From IMG/VR virus record IMGVR_UViG_3300050154_000158: DNA of 59,347 bases; one strand, given 5' to 3'. Below, in pieces: positions 3,706 through 44,024 of this stretch. Both the position numbers and the translations under genes were made by a program. The notes beneath the pieces were generated by a model. That model made no database searches. It had not been told where the DNA came from and was given only the letters and a program-made list of their open reading frames with translations. Every line of letters starts with the position of its first letter. Position 1 is the first letter of the stretch. This DNA comes from a virus.

Positions 3706-4557
3706 TTAGTGTTTTGACCAGCGGGACAACATAAAGGCGGCGCTTTGTATTCTGAACAGTGATTCGTTTATTTCGGTGAACCCTGACACCAATACTCGCT
3801 CAAGTTTGTCGCACTCGGTCATCATTATTCTTTGCTCTGGGCCGGACAAGTAAGCCTCTGCCAACTGGCGGATCTCGTTAACAATGGCGCGGCCAGATGC
3901 GTAACTGAGTTCATTTTCTTTTTCGATGGATACGCCAGCCGGAATATATTCACCTTCCAGCGTCAGGCGCGAAAGCAACGAAACGGCATCAGTGAAATGT
4001 TCGGGGGAGATCTCTTTGTAGGTAACGCCGAATTTCGATTTTAGTGCTGACCAGCAAGTAATGGTGGCTTTGGCGCGTTGGTTCGATGGCAGAGAATCGG
4101 CTTTATCTTTGACGATCTTCTTGATCGCTTCCTGTTGTTCGATGGTTAACCCATTCGGCAGGGCCTTGCGTGTTTTCTCTGGTCGGCTGCGCGGGTTAAC
4201 TGCTTCGCCCTGTGACCAATATTGCCACAGCGCATTATCGCATTCGTTCTGGTAGGTGACGACACGTTCGCGCACGGCCAGATCTTTGATCTTGTTCGGG
4301 TGGATGGTCATCAGCCAGCCGGGGAGTTTGCGCAGTGGCAAGCATGATGTTTGCTGATCGCCGCTTTTAGAGGGTATTGTCATTTCGACAACACCCCATC
4401 TTGATTCGTTTCCAGTTAACTTTTTGAATTGAGTCGCCCAGTTAAGCCCCATACCTTCAACGATAGGTTTCATGGCTGCGAATGGCTGACCTTCGTGTTG
4501 CAGGGTGATGAGTTGATGACCGTGAAATTCGACTGTAGCAATAGATTGGGTAGTCAT
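3706..4557 (-). CDS. antirepressor-type protein (P22 AR N-terminal-like domain)
   Basis: The N-terminus VEFHGHQLITLQHEGQPFAAMKPIVEGMGLNWATQFKKL resembles phage antirepressor N-terminal domains by eye. Confidence 0.6.
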   Translation of the reverse strand: MTTQSIATVEFHGHQLITLQHEGQPFAAMKPIVEGMGLNWATQFKKLTGNESRWGVVEMTIPSKSGDQQTSCLPLRKLPGWLMTIHPNKIKDLAVRERVVTYQNECDNALWQYWSQGEAVNPRSRPEKTRKALPNGLTIEQQEAIKKIVKDKADSLPSNQRAKATITCWSALKSKFGVTYKEISPEHFTDAVSLLSRLTLEGEYIPAGVSIEKENELSYASGRAIVNEIRQLAEAYLSGPEQRIMMTECDKLERVLVSGFTEINESLFRIQSAAFMLSRWSKH

Positions 4558-4720
4558 AATAATTGACCTTGCTTTGATGATTTTGTTATCACCACCACCG
4601 ATGCCAATCTAATGGTGATGAACCGTACAGGGTTGGCATACCGGCCACAAAGCAATCCGGCGCTTCCGAAGAAGCCCCTGCACGGCCCATCATTACTGAA
4701 ATGAGCTGTGCAGCGCGCAT

Positions 4721-4740
4721 AAAAAAACCGCTAACGCGGT
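4721..4740 (-). terminator. Rho-independent terminator (minus strand)
   Basis: Minus strand: ACCGC-gtta-GCGGT followed by T7. The hairpin is nested inside an outer GCGCAT/ATGCGC pairing (4715-4746). Confidence 0.7.
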
Positions 4741-4847
4741 ATGCGCTACTTTGTAGGTTCAGGATGCCAATCCCGACAGCAGATTTTGCTGCTGTAAGGT
4801 AAAGTTAGCGTTTTCATGCGGTGTTGTCAATTTTTCATCCTGATAGG

Positions 4848-8683: not shown

Positions 8684-9673
8684 CTAGACTGGGATGTCGT
8701 TTGTTTTGCGAGAGTTAACAAGGTTTTCAATAACCAATTTATCTTCTGGTGATAAGCTTCTCGCGATATCGAGTGCCGCATCAAAATTACCGTTCGATGC
8801 AAAATTAATGGCTTCTTGCAGCATGGGATCAACCTGAGATGCTTGTTGTTCTTGCTGCTGCTCGATAACTTGCCCCTCTTGTTGAAGACCGTCATCGACT
8901 ACATCAAACTCACCAGTTACAACAAAAGAATTATCTTGAGTAACTCCAGCGTCTGCTCTCTCATCAAGCGTCACAGCGGTTTGCATTTCGATGGATACTG
9001 GCAAGTATTTGAATAGGCGGCGGATTACGGTTTTCTTTGCCATCTCTTCAAAGTGGGTCATCCATGGGCCGCTATTTCCCGCTTTGCTTTGGGCTTTAAC
9101 TGCCATGACCTGCTCAAAGCTCATTACGTCAAACTGTACGCCACCATCTTTTAACTTTGCCACCGCGTAAACATGCGTCAACTTACCGGGATCGCTTCCT
9201 TCACATGGCTTGTGCTTCATGGTTTCATCAAGACCGTACTCATAACTGAATTCATCATTCTCGTGCACGGTTCTTGCTGAAAGACTGACGATCTGTCCAG
9301 AGCGGCGGGCTAAATCAATCATCCCGCGATAACCAACAATGAACTGAACTTCTACCGTGCCATTTTTACGATTGTTGAATGGCAACAAGTAGGCGTGGCC
9401 AAGTGCGCCGCCCGGTTCCAAGCCTAACTGAGCGCATTGCATGATCGCGCCAAGAAATGATTGCTGCTCACATCGGGCAAGCAGTGGGTTTTTACGTATC
9501 TCTGTTGTTGCAATACGAGCAAGGCGATCGGCTGTCATGTGCTTTGGAAGTGCCAGCGCCATTTGCTGTTTGATTTTTGGGTCACTCATCAACCCTGCGA
9601 TAGTTTGTGGTCGCTGCTGCTGCGCTGGCTGATTTCCAGTCGCAGTTCTCAGCGTATTGTTAGCCGATGCCAT
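8684..9673 (-). CDS. recT: RecT-family single-strand annealing protein
   Basis: FLGAIMQCAQLGLEPGGALGHAYLLPF is typical of RecT. It is paired with the exonuclease gene downstream. Confidence 0.85.
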   Translation of the reverse strand: MASANNTLRTATGNQPAQQQRPQTIAGLMSDPKIKQQMALALPKHMTADRLARIATTEIRKNPLLARCEQQSFLGAIMQCAQLGLEPGGALGHAYLLPFNNRKNGTVEVQFIVGYRGMIDLARRSGQIVSLSARTVHENDEFSYEYGLDETMKHKPCEGSDPGKLTHVYAVAKLKDGGVQFDVMSFEQVMAVKAQSKAGNSGPWMTHFEEMAKKTVIRRLFKYLPVSIEMQTAVTLDERADAGVTQDNSFVVTGEFDVVDDGLQQEGQVIEQQQEQQASQVDPMLQEAINFASNGNFDAALDIARSLSPEDKLVIENLVNSRKTNDIPV

Positions 9674-12929: not shown

Positions 12930-13004
12930 CACTCATCTCCATCAGTTCACACCTTGACGCGGTGACTTCGAGTTTGTTCTCTCGCCGCACTCTGTGCTGC
13001 TGAT

Positions 13005-13040
13005 GTGTTTAATTAAACACGCATCATGTTTATCTGTCAA
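13005..13040 (-). promoter_or_regulatory. early-left promoter (pL analog) with overlapping operators
   Basis: Minus strand: TTGACA (13035-13040)-N17-TTTAAT (13012-13017). The perfect palindrome GTGTTTAATTAAACAC (13005-13020) covers the -10. ATGTTTATCT motifs lie at 13026-13035 and 13063-13072. Confidence 0.65.
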
Positions 13041-13103
13041 CATGTGTTGTGTTTATTTTTTCATGTTTATCTGTGTTTTTTTGTGTTTATGGATTTCAGG
13101 CAA

Positions 13104-13126
13104 CAAAAAACCCGCCGAAGCGGGTT
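13104..13126 (-). terminator. Rho-independent terminator (minus strand) ending the YafO-like operon
   Basis: Minus strand: AACCCGC-ttcg-GCGGGTT followed by TTTTTT. Confidence 0.75.
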
Positions 13127-13145
13127 GGGTGGTTAGTTATTTTGC

Positions 13146-13553
13146 TTAGTACCAGGCTAGCATTTCAATATCAGATCGACTTAATGCGTGAAATGATTCC
13201 GCTTGGATCACCAGCCTAGGTAGCGCTCGGTCTATTGTCTTGTGCGCGTCTGGTGCGAGTATTGCCAACAACTGATAATGACTTGGGCAGACAATGTGCT
13301 CAACATACACAAGATAATTGTCGCTCTTTCTGTATTGCTGATAGACATTGGGGCCCCAGCTATCCGGCGGCAGCATTATGTGTATTTTTTTAATTCTAGA
13401 TAGTTGTGACTGTGGATTTCTTTCAAATTGAGAGTCAGCACCAAAGAATTTTGGCAGGCCAAGGTTGTTTTTGTATTGAGATAGGAGGCGTGAAAATCCA
13501 ATAGCAATATCATTGCCATAAAGTGATGGCGCAATACATGTCTTTGCGGTCAT
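13146..13553 (-). CDS. YafO-family toxin-like protein (135 aa)
   Basis: Aligns by eye with my recollection of E. coli YafO: FGAD/FGRD, KIHIML/VAHIHL, YLVY..QLLAILAPDAHK/HLVY..WLLIAILKPEPHK, QAESF/MAEAF. Confidence 0.65.
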   Translation of the reverse strand: MTAKTCIAPSLYGNDIAIGFSRLLSQYKNNLGLPKFFGADSQFERNPQSQLSRIKKIHIMLPPDSWGPNVYQQYRKSDNYLVYVEHIVCPSHYQLLAILAPDAHKTIDRALPRLVIQAESFHALSRSDIEMLAWY

Positions 13554-14131
13554 TACGAAGCCTTGCGTGGGGGCTCTATACCAAGAAACGCGTGAGATAT
13601 TTCCGCTGCCGCGTAAAACTGTTCTGCTGTGAATTCGAAATCAACGTCAATCTCAGCTTGAGACATGGTTTGCCTAATTGCGTCATTTAAATCAAGAAGC
13701 GCATTTCTTACCTTGTTGAGTCTGTACACAAAGTTTTTCCCAATCAAATCAATGGAGTCATTTTGGGTTTCTAATTCTTTTGATAGCTTTGCGCTATCAA
13801 GCATGCACTTGATTATGTTTATATTTTCGTTATAGATTTTTATACAACTATCAACCACATGCATTAGATCTGGAGTTAAATCGTCAGTTTGCTCTGCATC
13901 TTTAATCTGCAAAACATACCCTCGGATTTTATTTTCTATTAAATCCAAATCTGAGAATGCCTTCATTATTTGAGCTATAACTTCATGAACCTTAAAGACA
14001 GAAACATTGCCAGTCATGTTCAATGATATTGTACTAAATGGCTTCAATAGCTCGACCGCAGATAACTGCGAATCCAGTATCTCATTAATGAGCGCAGGAC
14101 TGCCTTTTGCAACATCAGCACTGAAACCCAT
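13553..14131 (-). CDS. hypothetical helical protein (192 aa), putative partner of the YafO-like toxin
   Basis: Its stop TAA overlaps the toxin ATG (TAATG). ATG with a GAGG RBS. It does not resemble YafN/Phd-type antitoxins. Confidence 0.6.
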   Translation of the reverse strand: MGFSADVAKGSPALINEILDSQLSAVELLKPFSTISLNMTGNVSVFKVHEVIAQIMKAFSDLDLIENKIRGYVLQIKDAEQTDDLTPDLMHVVDSCIKIYNENINIIKCMLDSAKLSKELETQNDSIDLIGKNFVYRLNKVRNALLDLNDAIRQTMSQAEIDVDFEFTAEQFYAAAEISHAFLGIEPPRKAS

Positions 14132-14179
14132 ATACACCTCAACAGAACTTAGTACAACGAAAGTAACTTAATTCTATGT

Positions 14180-14197
14180 GTAAACCATTCGGTTTAC
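14180..14197. promoter_or_regulatory. palindromic operator candidate upstream of the YafO-like operon
   Basis: GTAAACC-attc-GGTTTAC. On the minus strand it is followed by a TAGAAT -10-like hexamer. Confidence 0.4.
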
Positions 14198-14232
14198 CAC
14201 CTTAAACCACGGATCGTGCAAATCAGATCGCC

Positions 14233-14260
14233 ACAAAAAGAAAACCCGCACTTAGCGGGC
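14233..14260 (-). terminator. Rho-independent terminator (minus strand) ending the cI-linked gene block
   Basis: Minus strand: CCCGC-taagt-GCGGG followed by TTTTCTTTTT. Confidence 0.65.
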
Positions 14261-14280
14261 TTGATGTGACATGGGAGATA

Positions 14281-14487
14281 TTATTGTGAAGAGTCTTCGT
14301 AAGCTGACATGACCTTTTCCATGTCATTCCCAACTTTTTCCCAATCCTGCCTGAGGGACCGTGCCGCACTTGTCGATGTTGGGCGATTTTTCATTACAGC
14401 GGAAGACAAGGGACCGCAAAAATTCACTGGCATTAGCTCCAGCATTCTTGCCGCCGCAGATAGATATTGGTTTGCTTTTAACTTCAT
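14281..14487 (-). CDS. hypothetical protein (68 aa)
   Basis: ORF upstream of the terminator. Function unknown. Confidence 0.45.
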   Translation of the reverse strand: MKLKANQYLSAAARMLELMPVNFCGPLSSAVMKNRPTSTSAARSLRQDWEKVGNDMEKVMSAYEDSSQ

Positions 14488-14518
14488 GAGTGGCCAAATA
14501 CCAAGAGCGAGGAAAGAA

Positions 14519-15154
14519 TCATTTCTTCTGCTGATTCATTTCAGTCAGTAGGGTTTTAATGTCGGAAAGTGTTTCAGCTTTTTGCTTTTGAAGCTTTGCG
14601 TCAGTATCAGCATTTGATTTGTCAATCTTATCGTTCAACTGATCAATCTTTCCGCTAAGTTTTGACTCTAGTGTGGAGTTATTTGCTTTTACGACTTCCA
14701 TTGCATTATTGTTAGCCCATAAAGCAATTGGAGCATAAATAGCAACAATACCAACAACCACTGTTAGGGCGGCCCCAAGCATCCACACTTTAAGTGATTT
14801 ATTTTCAACGAGCCGATCTCTTTTGTCTTGATGAAACTCGTCCGCGATTTGTTTGTTTTGCTCTTTCATTTGCTCGGCGATAAGCTCTATTCTGCCGATC
14901 CTTGCGTCAATTTTCGACTCTATAAGCTCTAATCTGGCATCCAGCTCACCGCGAGAAACGTAGTCACTCATTTTTTCTTTCTCTTTTCGTTCACCTTCGC
15001 CTTTAATATAGACTTCATTTGTAGCGCTCACAACAGGGGGCTCCTCTATGCTGCTAGGCTCAACTGCATATTCTGGATATATTGATTGCTGATCATTGCT
15101 TATATTTTTTGCTGAAAAGAAATCAAACACGTTATTGTCAGAGTTATTATTCAT
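14519..15154 (-). CDS. membrane-anchored coiled-coil protein (211 aa; may start at internal MSDY)
   Basis: One clear TM segment (VWMLGAALTVVVGIVAIYAPIALW) flanked by coiled-coil-like charged repeats. Confidence 0.6.
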   Translation of the reverse strand: MNNNSDNNVFDFFSAKNISNDQQSIYPEYAVEPSSIEEPPVVSATNEVYIKGEGERKEKEKMSDYVSRGELDARLELIESKIDARIGRIELIAEQMKEQNKQIADEFHQDKRDRLVENKSLKVWMLGAALTVVVGIVAIYAPIALWANNNAMEVVKANNSTLESKLSGKIDQLNDKIDKSNADTDAKLQKQKAETLSDIKTLLTEMNQQKK

Positions 15155-15164
15155 AATCTATCCG

Positions 15165-15464
15165 TTAAATAACGTTGTGCTCTTTCAATAGACTTCCAAG
15201 GTGAGCGTGAAGATACTTTAGAGTATCAAGATCTGTTCTGGCGACAAATTCCACTCTTGGTTTTGTAGCTTGGGGCTGAAGTTCGCCCACATTTCCTGTT
15301 AATCCTGATATAGAAAATATCGCCATTTCAACAACTTTTCTTTTTGTCCCGCTAACCTCATATAGATTAACCGAAAATCCGTCTGCATTCCCCCGCGGCG
15401 CTCGGTCTAGGTCGTATAGCTCGGCCTTGTTGATTGCGTTCACAAGTTTGTTTTCATTATTCAT
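15165..15464 (-). CDS. hypothetical protein (99 aa)
   Basis: ORF 10 nt upstream of the membrane protein gene. No recognisable motif. Confidence 0.55.
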   Translation of the reverse strand: MNNENKLVNAINKAELYDLDRAPRGNADGFSVNLYEVSGTKRKVVEMAIFSISGLTGNVGELQPQATKPRVEFVARTDLDTLKYLHAHLGSLLKEHNVI

Positions 15465-15506
15465 TTTTTATCTCCGTTTTATAAATTAAAAAGATTTCTA
15501 TTCAGA

Positions 15507-15980
15507 TCATTTTTTATTCAGGGCTGATGTTGGTAACCAGAACTGAGCTTTGGTTTTGTTATCAGAAACCCAGGCTGAAAATTCATCTTTCTTGATATTC
15601 ATGATCGTCACCTTCACCTTATTTCTTCCTGTTGAACAAAGCGCCACTCCTTGATCGAGCGTGTCCACTTGCGCCGCGGTTCTTAAATTGTCAATCATTG
15701 CCTTCGTCTCTCCTTGAAACTCTGGCTCTCCGGTTTCTGGTGAAATGTTTGGCGTTGTACCAGTAAGCTGAATGGTGACCGCCGCTAAGGCAAATGTTTC
15801 ATTTACGTAATTTGATAATTCGCGTGTTGGACAGGCGTAGTACCAGTCTCGCTTGCTTGCAACGGTAATGGCCGTATCTCCAGCCATACAGCCAAGCTTG
15901 TCACATGATTTACTCATGTCCGATGCGGTTGCATTAAGGGCAACTGAAAGCAAGGCGGCTCCAATAGCTAATAGTTTCAT
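15507..15980 (-). CDS. secreted/periplasmic protein (157 aa) with signal peptide
   Basis: N-terminus MKLLAIGAALLSVALNATA, followed by a Cys-containing mature domain. Confidence 0.6.
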   Translation of the reverse strand: MKLLAIGAALLSVALNATASDMSKSCDKLGCMAGDTAITVASKRDWYYACPTRELSNYVNETFALAAVTIQLTGTTPNISPETGEPEFQGETKAMIDNLRTAAQVDTLDQGVALCSTGRNKVKVTIMNIKKDEFSAWVSDNKTKAQFWLPTSALNKK

Positions 15981-16027
15981 TCCGTGATCCCTATGATTAA
16001 TTATGTAAAAGGCCGCTCTATGGCGAC

Positions 16028-16792
16028 CTACAGTTTTTTTGATATCCAGGCTAATTTTACGCGACCAAGAACGCTGAATTTATCTCGTTCGCCATCTTCA
16101 ATAAGGTATGGCTCATATTGTTTATTATCTGAAATCATCAGAATTGAACCATCAGGCCGGCGCTGAAGTCTCTTTATATAAAGCTGATCATTGATGGTTA
16201 GAACATAAACCGCATCGGTAATGACATCCTTGATCCCTGAGTCAACGATCAAAACATCACCATCGTAGAACGTTGGCTGCATACTGTCACCAGAACCAGT
16301 AATCATCGCCAAGTTTGAAGTGTTTGTTATATTTAAATTTCTAGCGACCCAATCTTTTCTAAGAACAATCTCTTCTGCAACAACATCATAATCAGGAACT
16401 ATTGAACCAGGGCCCATTGAGGCAGAAACATCCAACCTTGGAACAGCAACGACTTCTGAATCGACTTTATTTGCCGCCGCCATTGAATTGTTGATTTCAT
16501 GCATAAAGGCAATGTTATCGGTTAATGCCTTATTTATTGCTGGATCAAACGGCATTTGAGTTGGTGCATCAACAAGCAATATCTCGGACTCGCTAACCCC
16601 AAGCGCAGCAGCAATAACAGCTACAGTTGGTCTATCCATGCCATTTCTGCCGGATTCGTAGTTACCAATCCTTGATTGAGACCATCCGCATTTTTCAGCC
16701 AAAAAAGCCTGAGACCAATCCTTAGACTCTCTGATTTCTTTAACTTTTAATCCCATCGCGTACTTAATCGGTCTTTTTTCTGGAGTTTTCAT
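16028..16792 (-). CDS. cI: CI-like repressor: XRE HTH plus LexA/S24 autopeptidase domain
   Basis: HTH (SQAFLAEKCGWSQSRIGNYESG) and C-terminal GSGDSMQPTFYDGDVLIVD...YIKRL (Ser/Lys dyad). Start set at MKTPEKR (alternative 16807). Confidence 0.85.
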   Translation of the reverse strand: MKTPEKRPIKYAMGLKVKEIRESKDWSQAFLAEKCGWSQSRIGNYESGRNGMDRPTVAVIAAALGVSESEILLVDAPTQMPFDPAINKALTDNIAFMHEINNSMAAANKVDSEVVAVPRLDVSASMGPGSIVPDYDVVAEEIVLRKDWVARNLNITNTSNLAMITGSGDSMQPTFYDGDVLIVDSGIKDVITDAVYVLTINDQLYIKRLQRRPDGSILMISDNKQYEPYLIEDGERDKFSVLGRVKLAWISKKL

Positions 16793-16858
16793 CTGACCAC
16801 CAATCATGTTTTTTGGTTTTATACCACATCCTGTGTTAATTAAATTACATGTATCGTG

Positions 16859-16887
16859 TTTACAAACTAACACATATCATGTTTAAT
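16859..16887 (+). promoter_or_regulatory. early-right promoter (pR analog) with overlapping operator
   Basis: TTTACA-N17-TTTAAT. The -10 is embedded in catGTTTAATTAAcgat (16878-16894). An inverted ATGTTTATCT motif lies at 16895-16904, and another TTAATTAA core at 16836-16843. Confidence 0.6.
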
Positions 16888-16916
16888 TAACGATAGATAA
16901 ACATAGGACGTATTAG

Positions 16917-17135
16917 ATGAACAAAATCGCCGAAAAACGAATCTCATTAAATCTATCTCAAGTGAAGTTCGCAGCTCACTGCGGCTGGAGGCAGTCTCGC
17001 TTAACAAACTATGAGCAAGGCAGAACACCATCCCTTCAAGACTGCCGATTAATCGTGTCAGTGCTGAACAAGCTTGGGTGCAAGTGCTCTCTTGATGATG
17101 TATTTCCACCATCAAATCAGCAACGCGCAGCATAA
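16917..17135 (+). CDS. cro: Cro-like HTH regulator (72 aa)
   Basis: XRE-type HTH (LSQVKFAAHCGWRQSRLTNYEQG), divergent from the repressor gene. Confidence 0.75.
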   Translation: MNKIAEKRISLNLSQVKFAAHCGWRQSRLTNYEQGRTPSLQDCRLIVSVLNKLGCKCSLDDVFPPSNQQRAA

Positions 17136-17189
17136 CTAAAAACGCTTGTCCACGAACGGACAGGCAAACAACCACCAAGTGAGGTACAT

Positions 17190-17435
17190 ATGCAAAAAGC
17201 CGAACTGATCCGAGGGCCAAGCATTCGCACCAATAAGCATTTAATTGTGATACTCGAGTATTGCTGTTTCTCGATGAATAAATCGCCGAATGCCGGTACG
17301 CCAGAAATATTACGTCTTGGCATTAAGAAGTTTGCAGAAGAAAAACCCGAGGAGTTTGAGTTTGCAGTTAAGAAAGGTGCAAAACATCTTGGTTTGAGCG
17401 TTGAGACACTAAAGCAATTGGCTTTTATGGAATAA
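17190..17435 (+). CDS. hypothetical protein (81 aa), cII-position gene
   Basis: ORF with a GAGG RBS, directly after cro and a 7-bp hairpin at about 17150-17169. Confidence 0.5.
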   Translation: MQKAELIRGPSIRTNKHLIVILEYCCFSMNKSPNAGTPEILRLGIKKFAEEKPEEFEFAVKKGAKHLGLSVETLKQLAFME

Positions 17436-43736: not shown

Positions 43737-44024
43737 TTACAGCCAACTAGCAACACCGCTATGACGAGAGCAGGTACCTCTGTGATGCGTGCTAAAACTG
43801 AACGAACCATCTCGGCATTTCGCTGTAGCGCCAGTAGGGGCTTTGCCTGATTTGGTGTGAGCGGGGCGGTGAACTTCTTTTCCGTCTACATTTGTGTAAC
43901 TGCCTTGCTCAAGCAGTTCATCTGCCTGTTGCTGAGTTTGTGTTGGAGCAGATGGTGGAGTTACTTTTGCAAATACAGGCTGAAATAGTAAAGCTGCCAA
44001 TAAAGCCAATAATGGTAAGCGCAT
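43737..44024 (-). CDS. secreted DUF3761-like protein (95 aa), reverse-strand moron
   Basis: Signal peptide MRLPLLALLAALLFQPVFA. The C-terminus CRDGSFSFSTHHRGTCSRHSGVASWL matches the DUF3761 motif. AAGGA RBS. Confidence 0.65.
   Translation of the reverse strand: MRLPLLALLAALLFQPVFAKVTPPSAPTQTQQQADELLEQGSYTNVDGKEVHRPAHTKSGKAPTGATAKCRDGSFSFSTHHRGTCSRHSGVASWL

Follow-up and report, generated by a model that had tools for sequence, protein, structure and literature searches.

This study concerns a block of four minus-strand genes (14281–15980) that lies directly behind the cI-type repressor gene in a 59,347-nt stretch of viral DNA, IMG/VR virus record IMGVR_UViG_3300050154_000158, which is referred to as the window throughout. 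The repressor gene (16028–16792, minus strand) encodes HTH_3 (6e-12) and Peptidase_S24 (1.6e-21) domains, falls into PHROG 4 (transcriptional repressor), and forms the upstream end of a unit in which open reading frames (ORFs) of 157, 99, 211, and 68 amino acids (aa) follow on the same strand, at the coordinates and sizes given in an earlier note that was made from the sequence alone. A weak hairpin with a U4 tract comes right after the cI stop codon (16004–16031, minus strand; −11.2 kcal/mol, z = −0.97); it was not among the terminator-scan results and is possibly an attenuator rather than a strong terminator. The strong intrinsic terminator that closes the unit (14233–14262, minus strand; stem 14262–14242 plus U-tract) was found by the scan and folds far more strongly than shuffled sequence (−19.2 kcal/mol, z = −3.9), in agreement with the earlier statement that no strong terminator occurs before 14233–14260.

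All four ORFs are gene-like in codon usage, with log-odds scores of 0.18, 0.16, 0.25, and 0.12 in the order given above; the scores were trained on the long genes of the phage, and real genes average 0.16–0.17 and spurious ORFs −0.06. An 80-aa ORF on the opposite strand (14309–14551) scored −0.009 and was rejected as spurious. The block had been described as visibly AT-rich: it is AT-rich, but only mildly so (41.9% GC, which is at the 10th percentile of 1.7-kb windows, vs. 45.8% for the window), and the same mild AT-richness is common to the whole immunity region, with cI at 40.8% GC. Seven of eight copies of the phage region are identical across 4.4 kb, a DNA similarity search with 13000–17200 against 50,697 phage records gave no match, and the tail sheath of this phage is just 49% identical to Ralstonia phage sheaths.

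The surroundings of the block are marked by a repeated motif, YRTGTTTA, of which the 59-kb window holds 13 copies. Three copies lie in the spacer between cI and cro (16855–16905) and six at 13004–13090, the latter including a perfect palindrome, TGTTTAATTAAACA, at 13006–13019, and the two clusters look like the OR and OL operators of the phage, respectively. The putative OL follows closely on a second terminator (13126–13109) and immediately precedes the leftward early operon with its first gene, an operon that runs on to RecT and YqaJ. The immunity region is thus ordered as cI, the four-gene block with its terminator, and a 194-aa gene paired with a YafO toxin gene, again followed by a terminator. 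Since cI and the block, which share a strand, lie between the two operator clusters, the block sits within the immunity region, as rexAB does in lambda, and the rexAB-like position proposed for it holds. The interval downstream of the repressor is a documented mosaic hotspot for defence cargo, carrying rexAB and bstA (PMC8585504).

The centre of the block is the 211-aa protein (14519–15154, minus strand), a predicted bitopic membrane protein with a single transmembrane (TM) helix at about residues 124–147 (14714–14785; KD19 maximum 2.26). The helix is flanked on both sides by heptad-like, charged sequence, as the earlier description of one TM helix between coiled coils had it, and four lysine or arginine residues on the N-terminal side vs. 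one on the C-terminal side point to an N-in/C-out topology. A word-indexed search with this protein found only the protein itself, and tblastn searches of phage records, made with the protein and with a typical family core, gave no match. Exhaustive phmmer against 1.84 billion cluster representatives recovered 47 relatives at E<1e-3, the closest of which (P0005) is 44% identical over residues 57–211 (E = 2e-20). An alignment of 41 members was used to define an unnamed family, referred to here as the ELDAKLE coiled-coil/TM family.

The alignment divides the protein into a variable N-terminal extension (residues 1–61; 14972–15154), which is unconserved, a conserved Met, and a conserved, putatively cytoplasmic coiled-coil motif, SRGELDARLELIESKIDARIGRIE, at about residues 68–90 (14885–14953). 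The family motif reads RxELDAKLExIExRMDxRxxRIE, with invariant or near-invariant columns at R68, E70, L71, D72, A73, L75, E76, I78, E79, M82, D83, R85, and E90. C-terminal to the motif the members carry more heptads, one TM helix, often SNMVASFESGKNT, and a tail of varying length. In the family as defined here, the motif precedes a single TM helix by ~35–50 residues, and a conserved Met stands 5–8 residues ahead of the motif; the 211-aa protein conforms to this pattern with M62, the motif at residues 67–90, and its TM helix at 124–147. With a cytoplasmic conserved part and a periplasmic tail that is short or variable, the family probably has its conserved function on the cytoplasmic side.

Against Pfam, PHROG, PADLOC, and NCBIfam the four proteins gave nothing above noise, the 211-aa protein finding only weak PHROG matches of unknown function, and no component model in PADLOC-DB v2 matched (best E-values 0.03 or weaker). 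No PDB sequence match was found for the 157-, 99-, or 211-aa proteins; PDB sequence and profile searches returned only generic coiled coils, and the family profile only leucine zippers. Pfam XhlA (PF10779) showed weak matches in 5 of the 41 relatives (best 2.4e-8), while Pfam matched neither the 211-aa protein nor its short form nor nine typical relatives, and ten representative members gave no hit. Literature searches found no named system matching the cassette described below.

A second, unusual feature of the family lies within the gene. The internal Met 5–8 residues ahead of the motif is present in 34 of the 41 aligned members, and in the 211-aa protein this is M62 (14969–14971, minus strand), at which a short isoform may start; in most relatives a −10 element stands exactly 6 nt ahead of this Met. 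At 11 of 23 distinct loci the N-terminal extension contains a sigma70-like promoter (at least 9 of 12 consensus positions) whose −10 element ends exactly 6 nt before the internal ATG, typically with a TTGaca-like −35, a 17-nt spacer, and C/GATAAT; among the other ATGs of these loci, only 0.16% reach such a score. Across the −35 the encoded amino acids vary (VD, VV, YD, DD, YA, IV) while the nucleotides stay, which suggests a constraint at the DNA level, and the His/Asp-Asn pair is always encoded CAT/GAT-AAT, even in loci of 57–64% GC. The reading frame of the extension is kept open at the same time (median of 65 open codons in frame vs. 9.5 off frame, P = 4e-10), so that embedded promoter and preserved frame together make both a long and a short product likely. 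A −10 element placed 6 nt before the ATG is the geometry of a leaderless mRNA and suggests two nested products. Such nested products are known from P22 sieB/esc and lambda S107/S105, and lambda expresses rexB alone from pLIT, a promoter within rexA. In the 211-aa gene a promoter-like site, TTGTGA-17-TATATT (15005–15033, minus strand), matches 9 of 12 positions, which is not significant on its own but agrees with the promoter embedded in this gene in other members, and lies ~33 nt upstream of the internal Met. Neither the gene nor its closest relative (L041) has the leaderless register: in both, the promoter-like site is ~30 nt further upstream and is followed by a purine-rich or Shine-Dalgarno (SD)-like tract.

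The genomic context of the family was examined at ~28 loci from IMG/VR, metagenomes, exact-protein look-ups, and annotated phages, which were inspected by hand and do not amount to a systematic survey. A recurrent order emerged: a divergent early/replication operon, the repressor, zero to three extra genes, a small soluble protein (73–130 aa), and the family member. The family member stands just behind the repressor in ~19 independent prophage lineages, nearly always preceded by the small soluble protein; in many lineages the pair follows the repressor directly and on its strand. The arrangement is present in L015, L016, L019, L020, L022, L023, L024, L027, L030, L032, L033, L036, L037, L039, L042, L043, and L044. 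Examples are L022 (cI of 241, then 95 and 165 aa), L033 (245, 123, and 152 aa), and L036 (226, 58, 107, and 193 aa), and, with a lipoprotein gene included, L039 (248, lipoprotein of 137, 100, and 144 aa), L019 (208, lipoprotein of 208, 106–114, and 179 aa), and L023 (238, lipoprotein of 231, 79, 79, and 170 aa). In L044 an S24 repressor is followed by an exported 198-aa protein, a small ORF, the family member, and then RecT, YqaJ, and integrase genes. The window fits the same arrangement with cI, 157, 99, and 211 aa. Peptidase_S24 was detected in 8 of the 15 upstream regulators scanned, and a helix-turn-helix (HTH) domain in several others.

The arrangement is also found in an annotated phage, Pseudomonas phage vB_PaeS-D14O (D3-like, genus Detrevirus), in which an annotated cI is followed by a 94-aa Zn-ribbon protein, a 179-aa family member, and terminators. 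With a family member in a D3-like phage of Pseudomonas aeruginosa, the question of what the cassette does is directly testable in a tractable host. Behind the cassette of vB_PaeS-D14O, a separate unit (L045 5837–6490), which belongs to the same interval, encodes an uncharacterised 218-aa protein that has a zinc ribbon at its N-terminus and also a TM segment.

The small partners and the family members are closely coupled, and their stop and start codons often overlap, but the partners are diverse: homology among them is confined to a Zn-ribbon class and a short helical class, and the remainder are singletons. The 99-aa protein of the window (15165–15464, minus strand), which occupies the partner slot behind a good SD sequence (GGAG) and with gene-like codon usage, resembles none of the partners at the other loci, and the 86-aa partner seen with the closest relative of the 211-aa protein is likewise unrelated. 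The 99-aa protein lacks any hydrophobic segment, which agrees with the cytoplasmic location assigned to it earlier, and its only matches were itself and one shortened variant; IMG/VR scans with the 99-, 68-, and 211-aa proteins as single queries gave nothing. The shortened variant comes from a metagenomic copy (L001, ~8700–8710; window equivalent ~15250) that carries a 5-bp deletion (CCAAG) and is otherwise identical over 4.4 kb. The deletion shortens the 99-aa protein to 77 aa, leaves the 211-aa gene intact, and represents either natural loss of function or a mistake in the assembly.

The 157-aa protein (15507–15980, minus strand) follows a different logic. The signal peptide and Cys residues attributed to it are present: the protein has an N-terminal hydrophobic signal-like segment with ...LNATA/SD, and four Cys (26, 31, 50, and 115), all of which are kept in homologues together with the signal segment. 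A search of 5.8 billion proteins yielded a single homologue (51% identity, Pseudomonas sp.), and two more came from scans of genome and viral contigs. In Pseudomonas prophages and an IMG/VR contig (L009–L012, L014) the homologue is a lone gene on the opposite strand just upstream of the tape-measure gene, and in a Rhodospirillales contig (L013) its neighbours are an HTH gene on one side and an integrase gene on the other. Relatives of the 99-, 211-, or 68-aa genes are missing from all of these loci. The gene thus varies in presence, site, and transcription unit as a moron does; the typical products of morons, which have diverse roles, include secreted Cys-rich and small membrane proteins (PMC3594210). 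In the window itself it has no convincing promoter and no flanking terminator and appears embedded in the cI-side unit. The best explanation suggested by these comparisons is that its product is exported and disulfide-bonded, and that the gene moves among prophages alone as a self-contained, moron-like unit.

A classic site for morons is the slot that separates the tail chaperone gene from the tape-measure gene: in HK97 it holds gene 15, whose YebO-like product, gp15, is a small prophage-expressed inner-membrane protein (PMC3594210). Homologues of the 157-aa protein (L009, L014) and one ELDAKLE family member (L021) occupy the slot of gp15, but are unrelated to it in sequence; gp15 blocks DNA entry. 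The tail-operon slot ahead of the tape-measure gene of the window holds a DUF3761 secreted-protein gene on the strand opposite to the tail operon (43737–44024, minus strand; E = 7e-31) instead of a 157-aa homologue. A partial DUF3761 copy with 71% identity (L041 349–690) adjoins the closest relative of the 211-aa gene.

The 68-aa ORF (14281–14487, minus strand) is an orphan of uncertain status. Its codon score of 0.12 is reached by just 1% of spurious ORFs, yet it has no SD sequence and no homologue, and gene callers were inconsistent on it across identical contigs. Its product has no hydrophobic segment. Rfam returned only a sub-threshold Trp-leader match on 14150–14560, which was produced by the terminator, so the region is not a known RNA.

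Taken together, the block is best read as a mosaic of accessory cargo genes that a temperate phage carries between its repressor and OL, and not as one four-part system, and I put the probability of this reading, with a membrane exclusion or abortive-infection role included, at roughly 55%. The structural and evolutionary side of the reading can be held with considerable confidence, while the anti-phage function is plausible but falls somewhat short of even odds. On the sequence comparisons above, the best explanation of the 99- and 211-aa genes is that they represent this phage's copy of an unnamed, widespread cassette of two genes, composed of a variable small soluble protein and a conserved inner-membrane protein. 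In a lysogen the unit would be transcribed by read-through from the repressor promoter and from internal promoters. The 211-aa protein would be an effector of exclusion or abortive infection that works from the cytoplasmic side of the inner membrane, with the variable partner and the N-terminal extension supplying specificity or control, and the short isoform, which consists of the coiled coil and TM helix only, may modulate the long form.

Several points weigh against this reading. PADLOC, Pfam, NCBIfam, and PDB give nothing that explains any of the four proteins, in which the earlier note had recognised no motif either; the remote-homology and structure check proposed there did place the 211-aa protein in a family, albeit an unnamed one, but yielded no explanatory match, and the AlphaFold models of the 99- and 157-aa proteins were unusable (predicted local distance difference test, pLDDT, of 43 each). 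Co-transcription with cI is deduced only from the lack of a strong terminator in between, where the weak hairpin is found. The repressor linkage is not absolute: two family members lie in tail-gene clusters, namely a longer form of 319 aa directly ahead of the tape-measure gene (L021 5629–6588) and a member between tail genes I and J of Pseudomonas phage vB_PaeS-D14P (L046 3195–3887), and two or three members have chromosomal neighbours (L028, L038). The partner is so extremely diverse that it could be merely an adjacent gene rather than a functional partner. Lastly, the nominal P of ~1e-25 for the embedded promoter is overstated, as homologous loci were treated as independent, and the gene in the window has no promoter in the leaderless register, in which it matches only 6 of 12 positions.

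A bolder version would make the 99/211 pair a new and widespread class of repressor-linked prophage defence, in which a two-isoform, tail-anchored coiled-coil effector is combined with a hypervariable small sensor, distinct from RexAB, SieB, BstA, and every catalogued system. Here, the full-length protein would be made by read-through from the repressor, and a short antagonist or co-factor from the in-gene promoter as a leaderless mRNA. I regard this version as tentative and rather unlikely.

It is improbable, though worth weighing, that the block is lysogenic-conversion or host-fitness cargo with no anti-phage role, serving envelope remodelling, stress tolerance, or interaction with a eukaryotic host. 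None of the four genes is linked to a known defence family, and secreted Cys-rich and small membrane proteins would suit such cargo as they are typical moron products (PMC3594210), but the conserved part of the ELDAKLE family is cytoplasmic with a short or variable periplasmic tail, and the hypervariable partner and N-terminal extension look like arms-race diversification. The tight and repeated linkage to repressors resembles that of RexAB and BstA (PMC8585504), which further argues against a pure fitness role.

The chances are slimmer still that the family serves the phage's own cycle, through lysis timing, membrane remodelling, or as a lysogeny-lysis helper of the kind proposed for lambda RexA/RexB. 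Dual-start membrane proteins are classic for holins, and the architecture is XhlA-like: XhlA of Bacillus PBSX-type prophages likewise combines a coiled coil at the N-terminus with a TM helix at the C-terminus, five of the 41 relatives match it weakly, and the two members among tail genes (L021, L046) are on the late strand. However, XhlA is found in lysis cassettes beside holin and endolysin genes and not behind a repressor, whereas the 211-aa gene has cI, orphan ORFs, and the YafO pair as neighbours and no holin or endolysin gene adjacent to it. Typical members lack an XhlA match, and most lie in the immunity region and are transcribed away from the lytic operons, in the case of the window upstream of OL.

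The proposal of the earlier note, a single system for exclusion or sensing at the envelope, made up of periplasmic, cytoplasmic, and membrane components, is highly improbable in light of the other loci. The four genes do lie between cI and one terminator with short gaps, and an exported or lipoprotein gene is found between repressor and pair in five other loci (L015, L019, L023, L039, L044). Homology among the exported or lipoprotein genes of these five loci was considered and rejected; they are mutually unrelated, which is easier to reconcile with independent cargo than with a conserved third component. In most family loci an exported gene is lacking altogether, the 157-aa homologues are solitary elsewhere, and no related locus carries homologues of the 99- or 68-aa orphans, so the co-occurrence in other prophages that was suggested as a check did not materialise: the genes do not travel together.

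An addiction module of the membrane-toxin/antitoxin type, stabilising the prophage rather than defending the cell against phages, would suit the tight coupling of a small upstream gene to a membrane-protein gene, the weak resemblance of a few relatives to the lysis-associated membrane protein XhlA, and the YafO toxin pair next door, by which the interval is seen to collect toxin modules, but is just as improbable given the natural variant with a frameshifted 99-aa gene beside an intact 211-aa gene in an otherwise identical 4.4 kb, partners that are non-homologous across loci, and no recognisable toxin or antitoxin domain, type II or other, in the 99- or 211-aa protein.

The cargo reading places the block beside known repressor-linked systems, to which it can be compared. 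Lambda RexAB excludes T4 rII-type phages with loss of membrane potential. Like rexAB, the block lies between cI and OL on the cI strand with a terminator at its end, and comprises a soluble and a membrane protein. Unlike in rexAB, there is no similarity in sequence or size, and an unrelated secreted-protein gene comes first: RexB has four TM helices and RexA ~279 aa, compared with one TM helix and a 99-aa orphan here. No block protein matched a RexA-type protein (structure 8TWQ) by PDB sequence, Pfam, or PADLOC, and a four-TM protein of the RexB type is absent, the 211-aa protein having a single hydrophobic segment and the 99- and 68-aa proteins lacking one. The block is best filed among accessory modules linked to a prophage repressor, in the same place as RexAB and BstA but with none of the sequence and architecture features of RexAB, and no SieB, XhlA, YebO/gp15, toxin-antitoxin, or PADLOC model fits it.

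The sieB gene of P22 and lambda is expressed from the prophage, and an in-frame internal start yields a shorter antagonist isoform, esc. The conserved internal Met of the ELDAKLE family, with a predicted promoter of its own, is reminiscent of this, but the genome position differs and the short isoform is only a candidate here; the SieB Pfam model was not matched in a Pfam-A scan of the block proteins at E<=0.1. BstA and the RexAB-type system of Pseudomonas putida prophage P1 are further cases of defence genes directly downstream of a repressor (PMC8585504, PMC12894663). The proteins of the block resemble neither BstA, which is one large protein of the cytoplasm, nor the RexA/RexB-like RexAB-pp. 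The repressor of P. putida P1 is separated from RexAB-pp by two uncharacterised genes, PP_3897 and PP_3898, whose deletion gave no phenotype against two phages (PMC12894663).

The repressor-downstream interval is among the few places in which position alone predicts expression in the lysogen and probable protection, and only a handful of its occupants are understood (RexAB, BstA, and a few others). Many unrelated proteobacterial prophages hold this unnamed membrane-protein family in the same slot, with an unusual gene-within-gene signal. If a defence function were true, it would represent a common prophage-borne mechanism that current defence-finding tools miss.

The window also shows that the interval can stack three independent cargo units. 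Beyond the block, and likewise between OL and OR, the 194-aa gene overlaps the YafO-family toxin gene by 1 nt (13146–14137, minus strand; YafO_toxin 1.5e-24, NCBIfam YafO). The toxin is 135 aa long, and the upstream 194-aa gene, which has no recognisable domain, replaces the usual short YafN antitoxin. With its own terminator at 13126–13109, the pair is a second cargo unit inside the immunity region. Elsewhere in the window, a C4 antisense RNA (4611–4697) and an isrK RNA (4721–4795) are encoded on the minus strand just upstream of a P22_AR_N antirepressor gene (3706–4557), and this region (3706–4795) is a second immunity region of the phage, of the P1/P7/P22 immI type.

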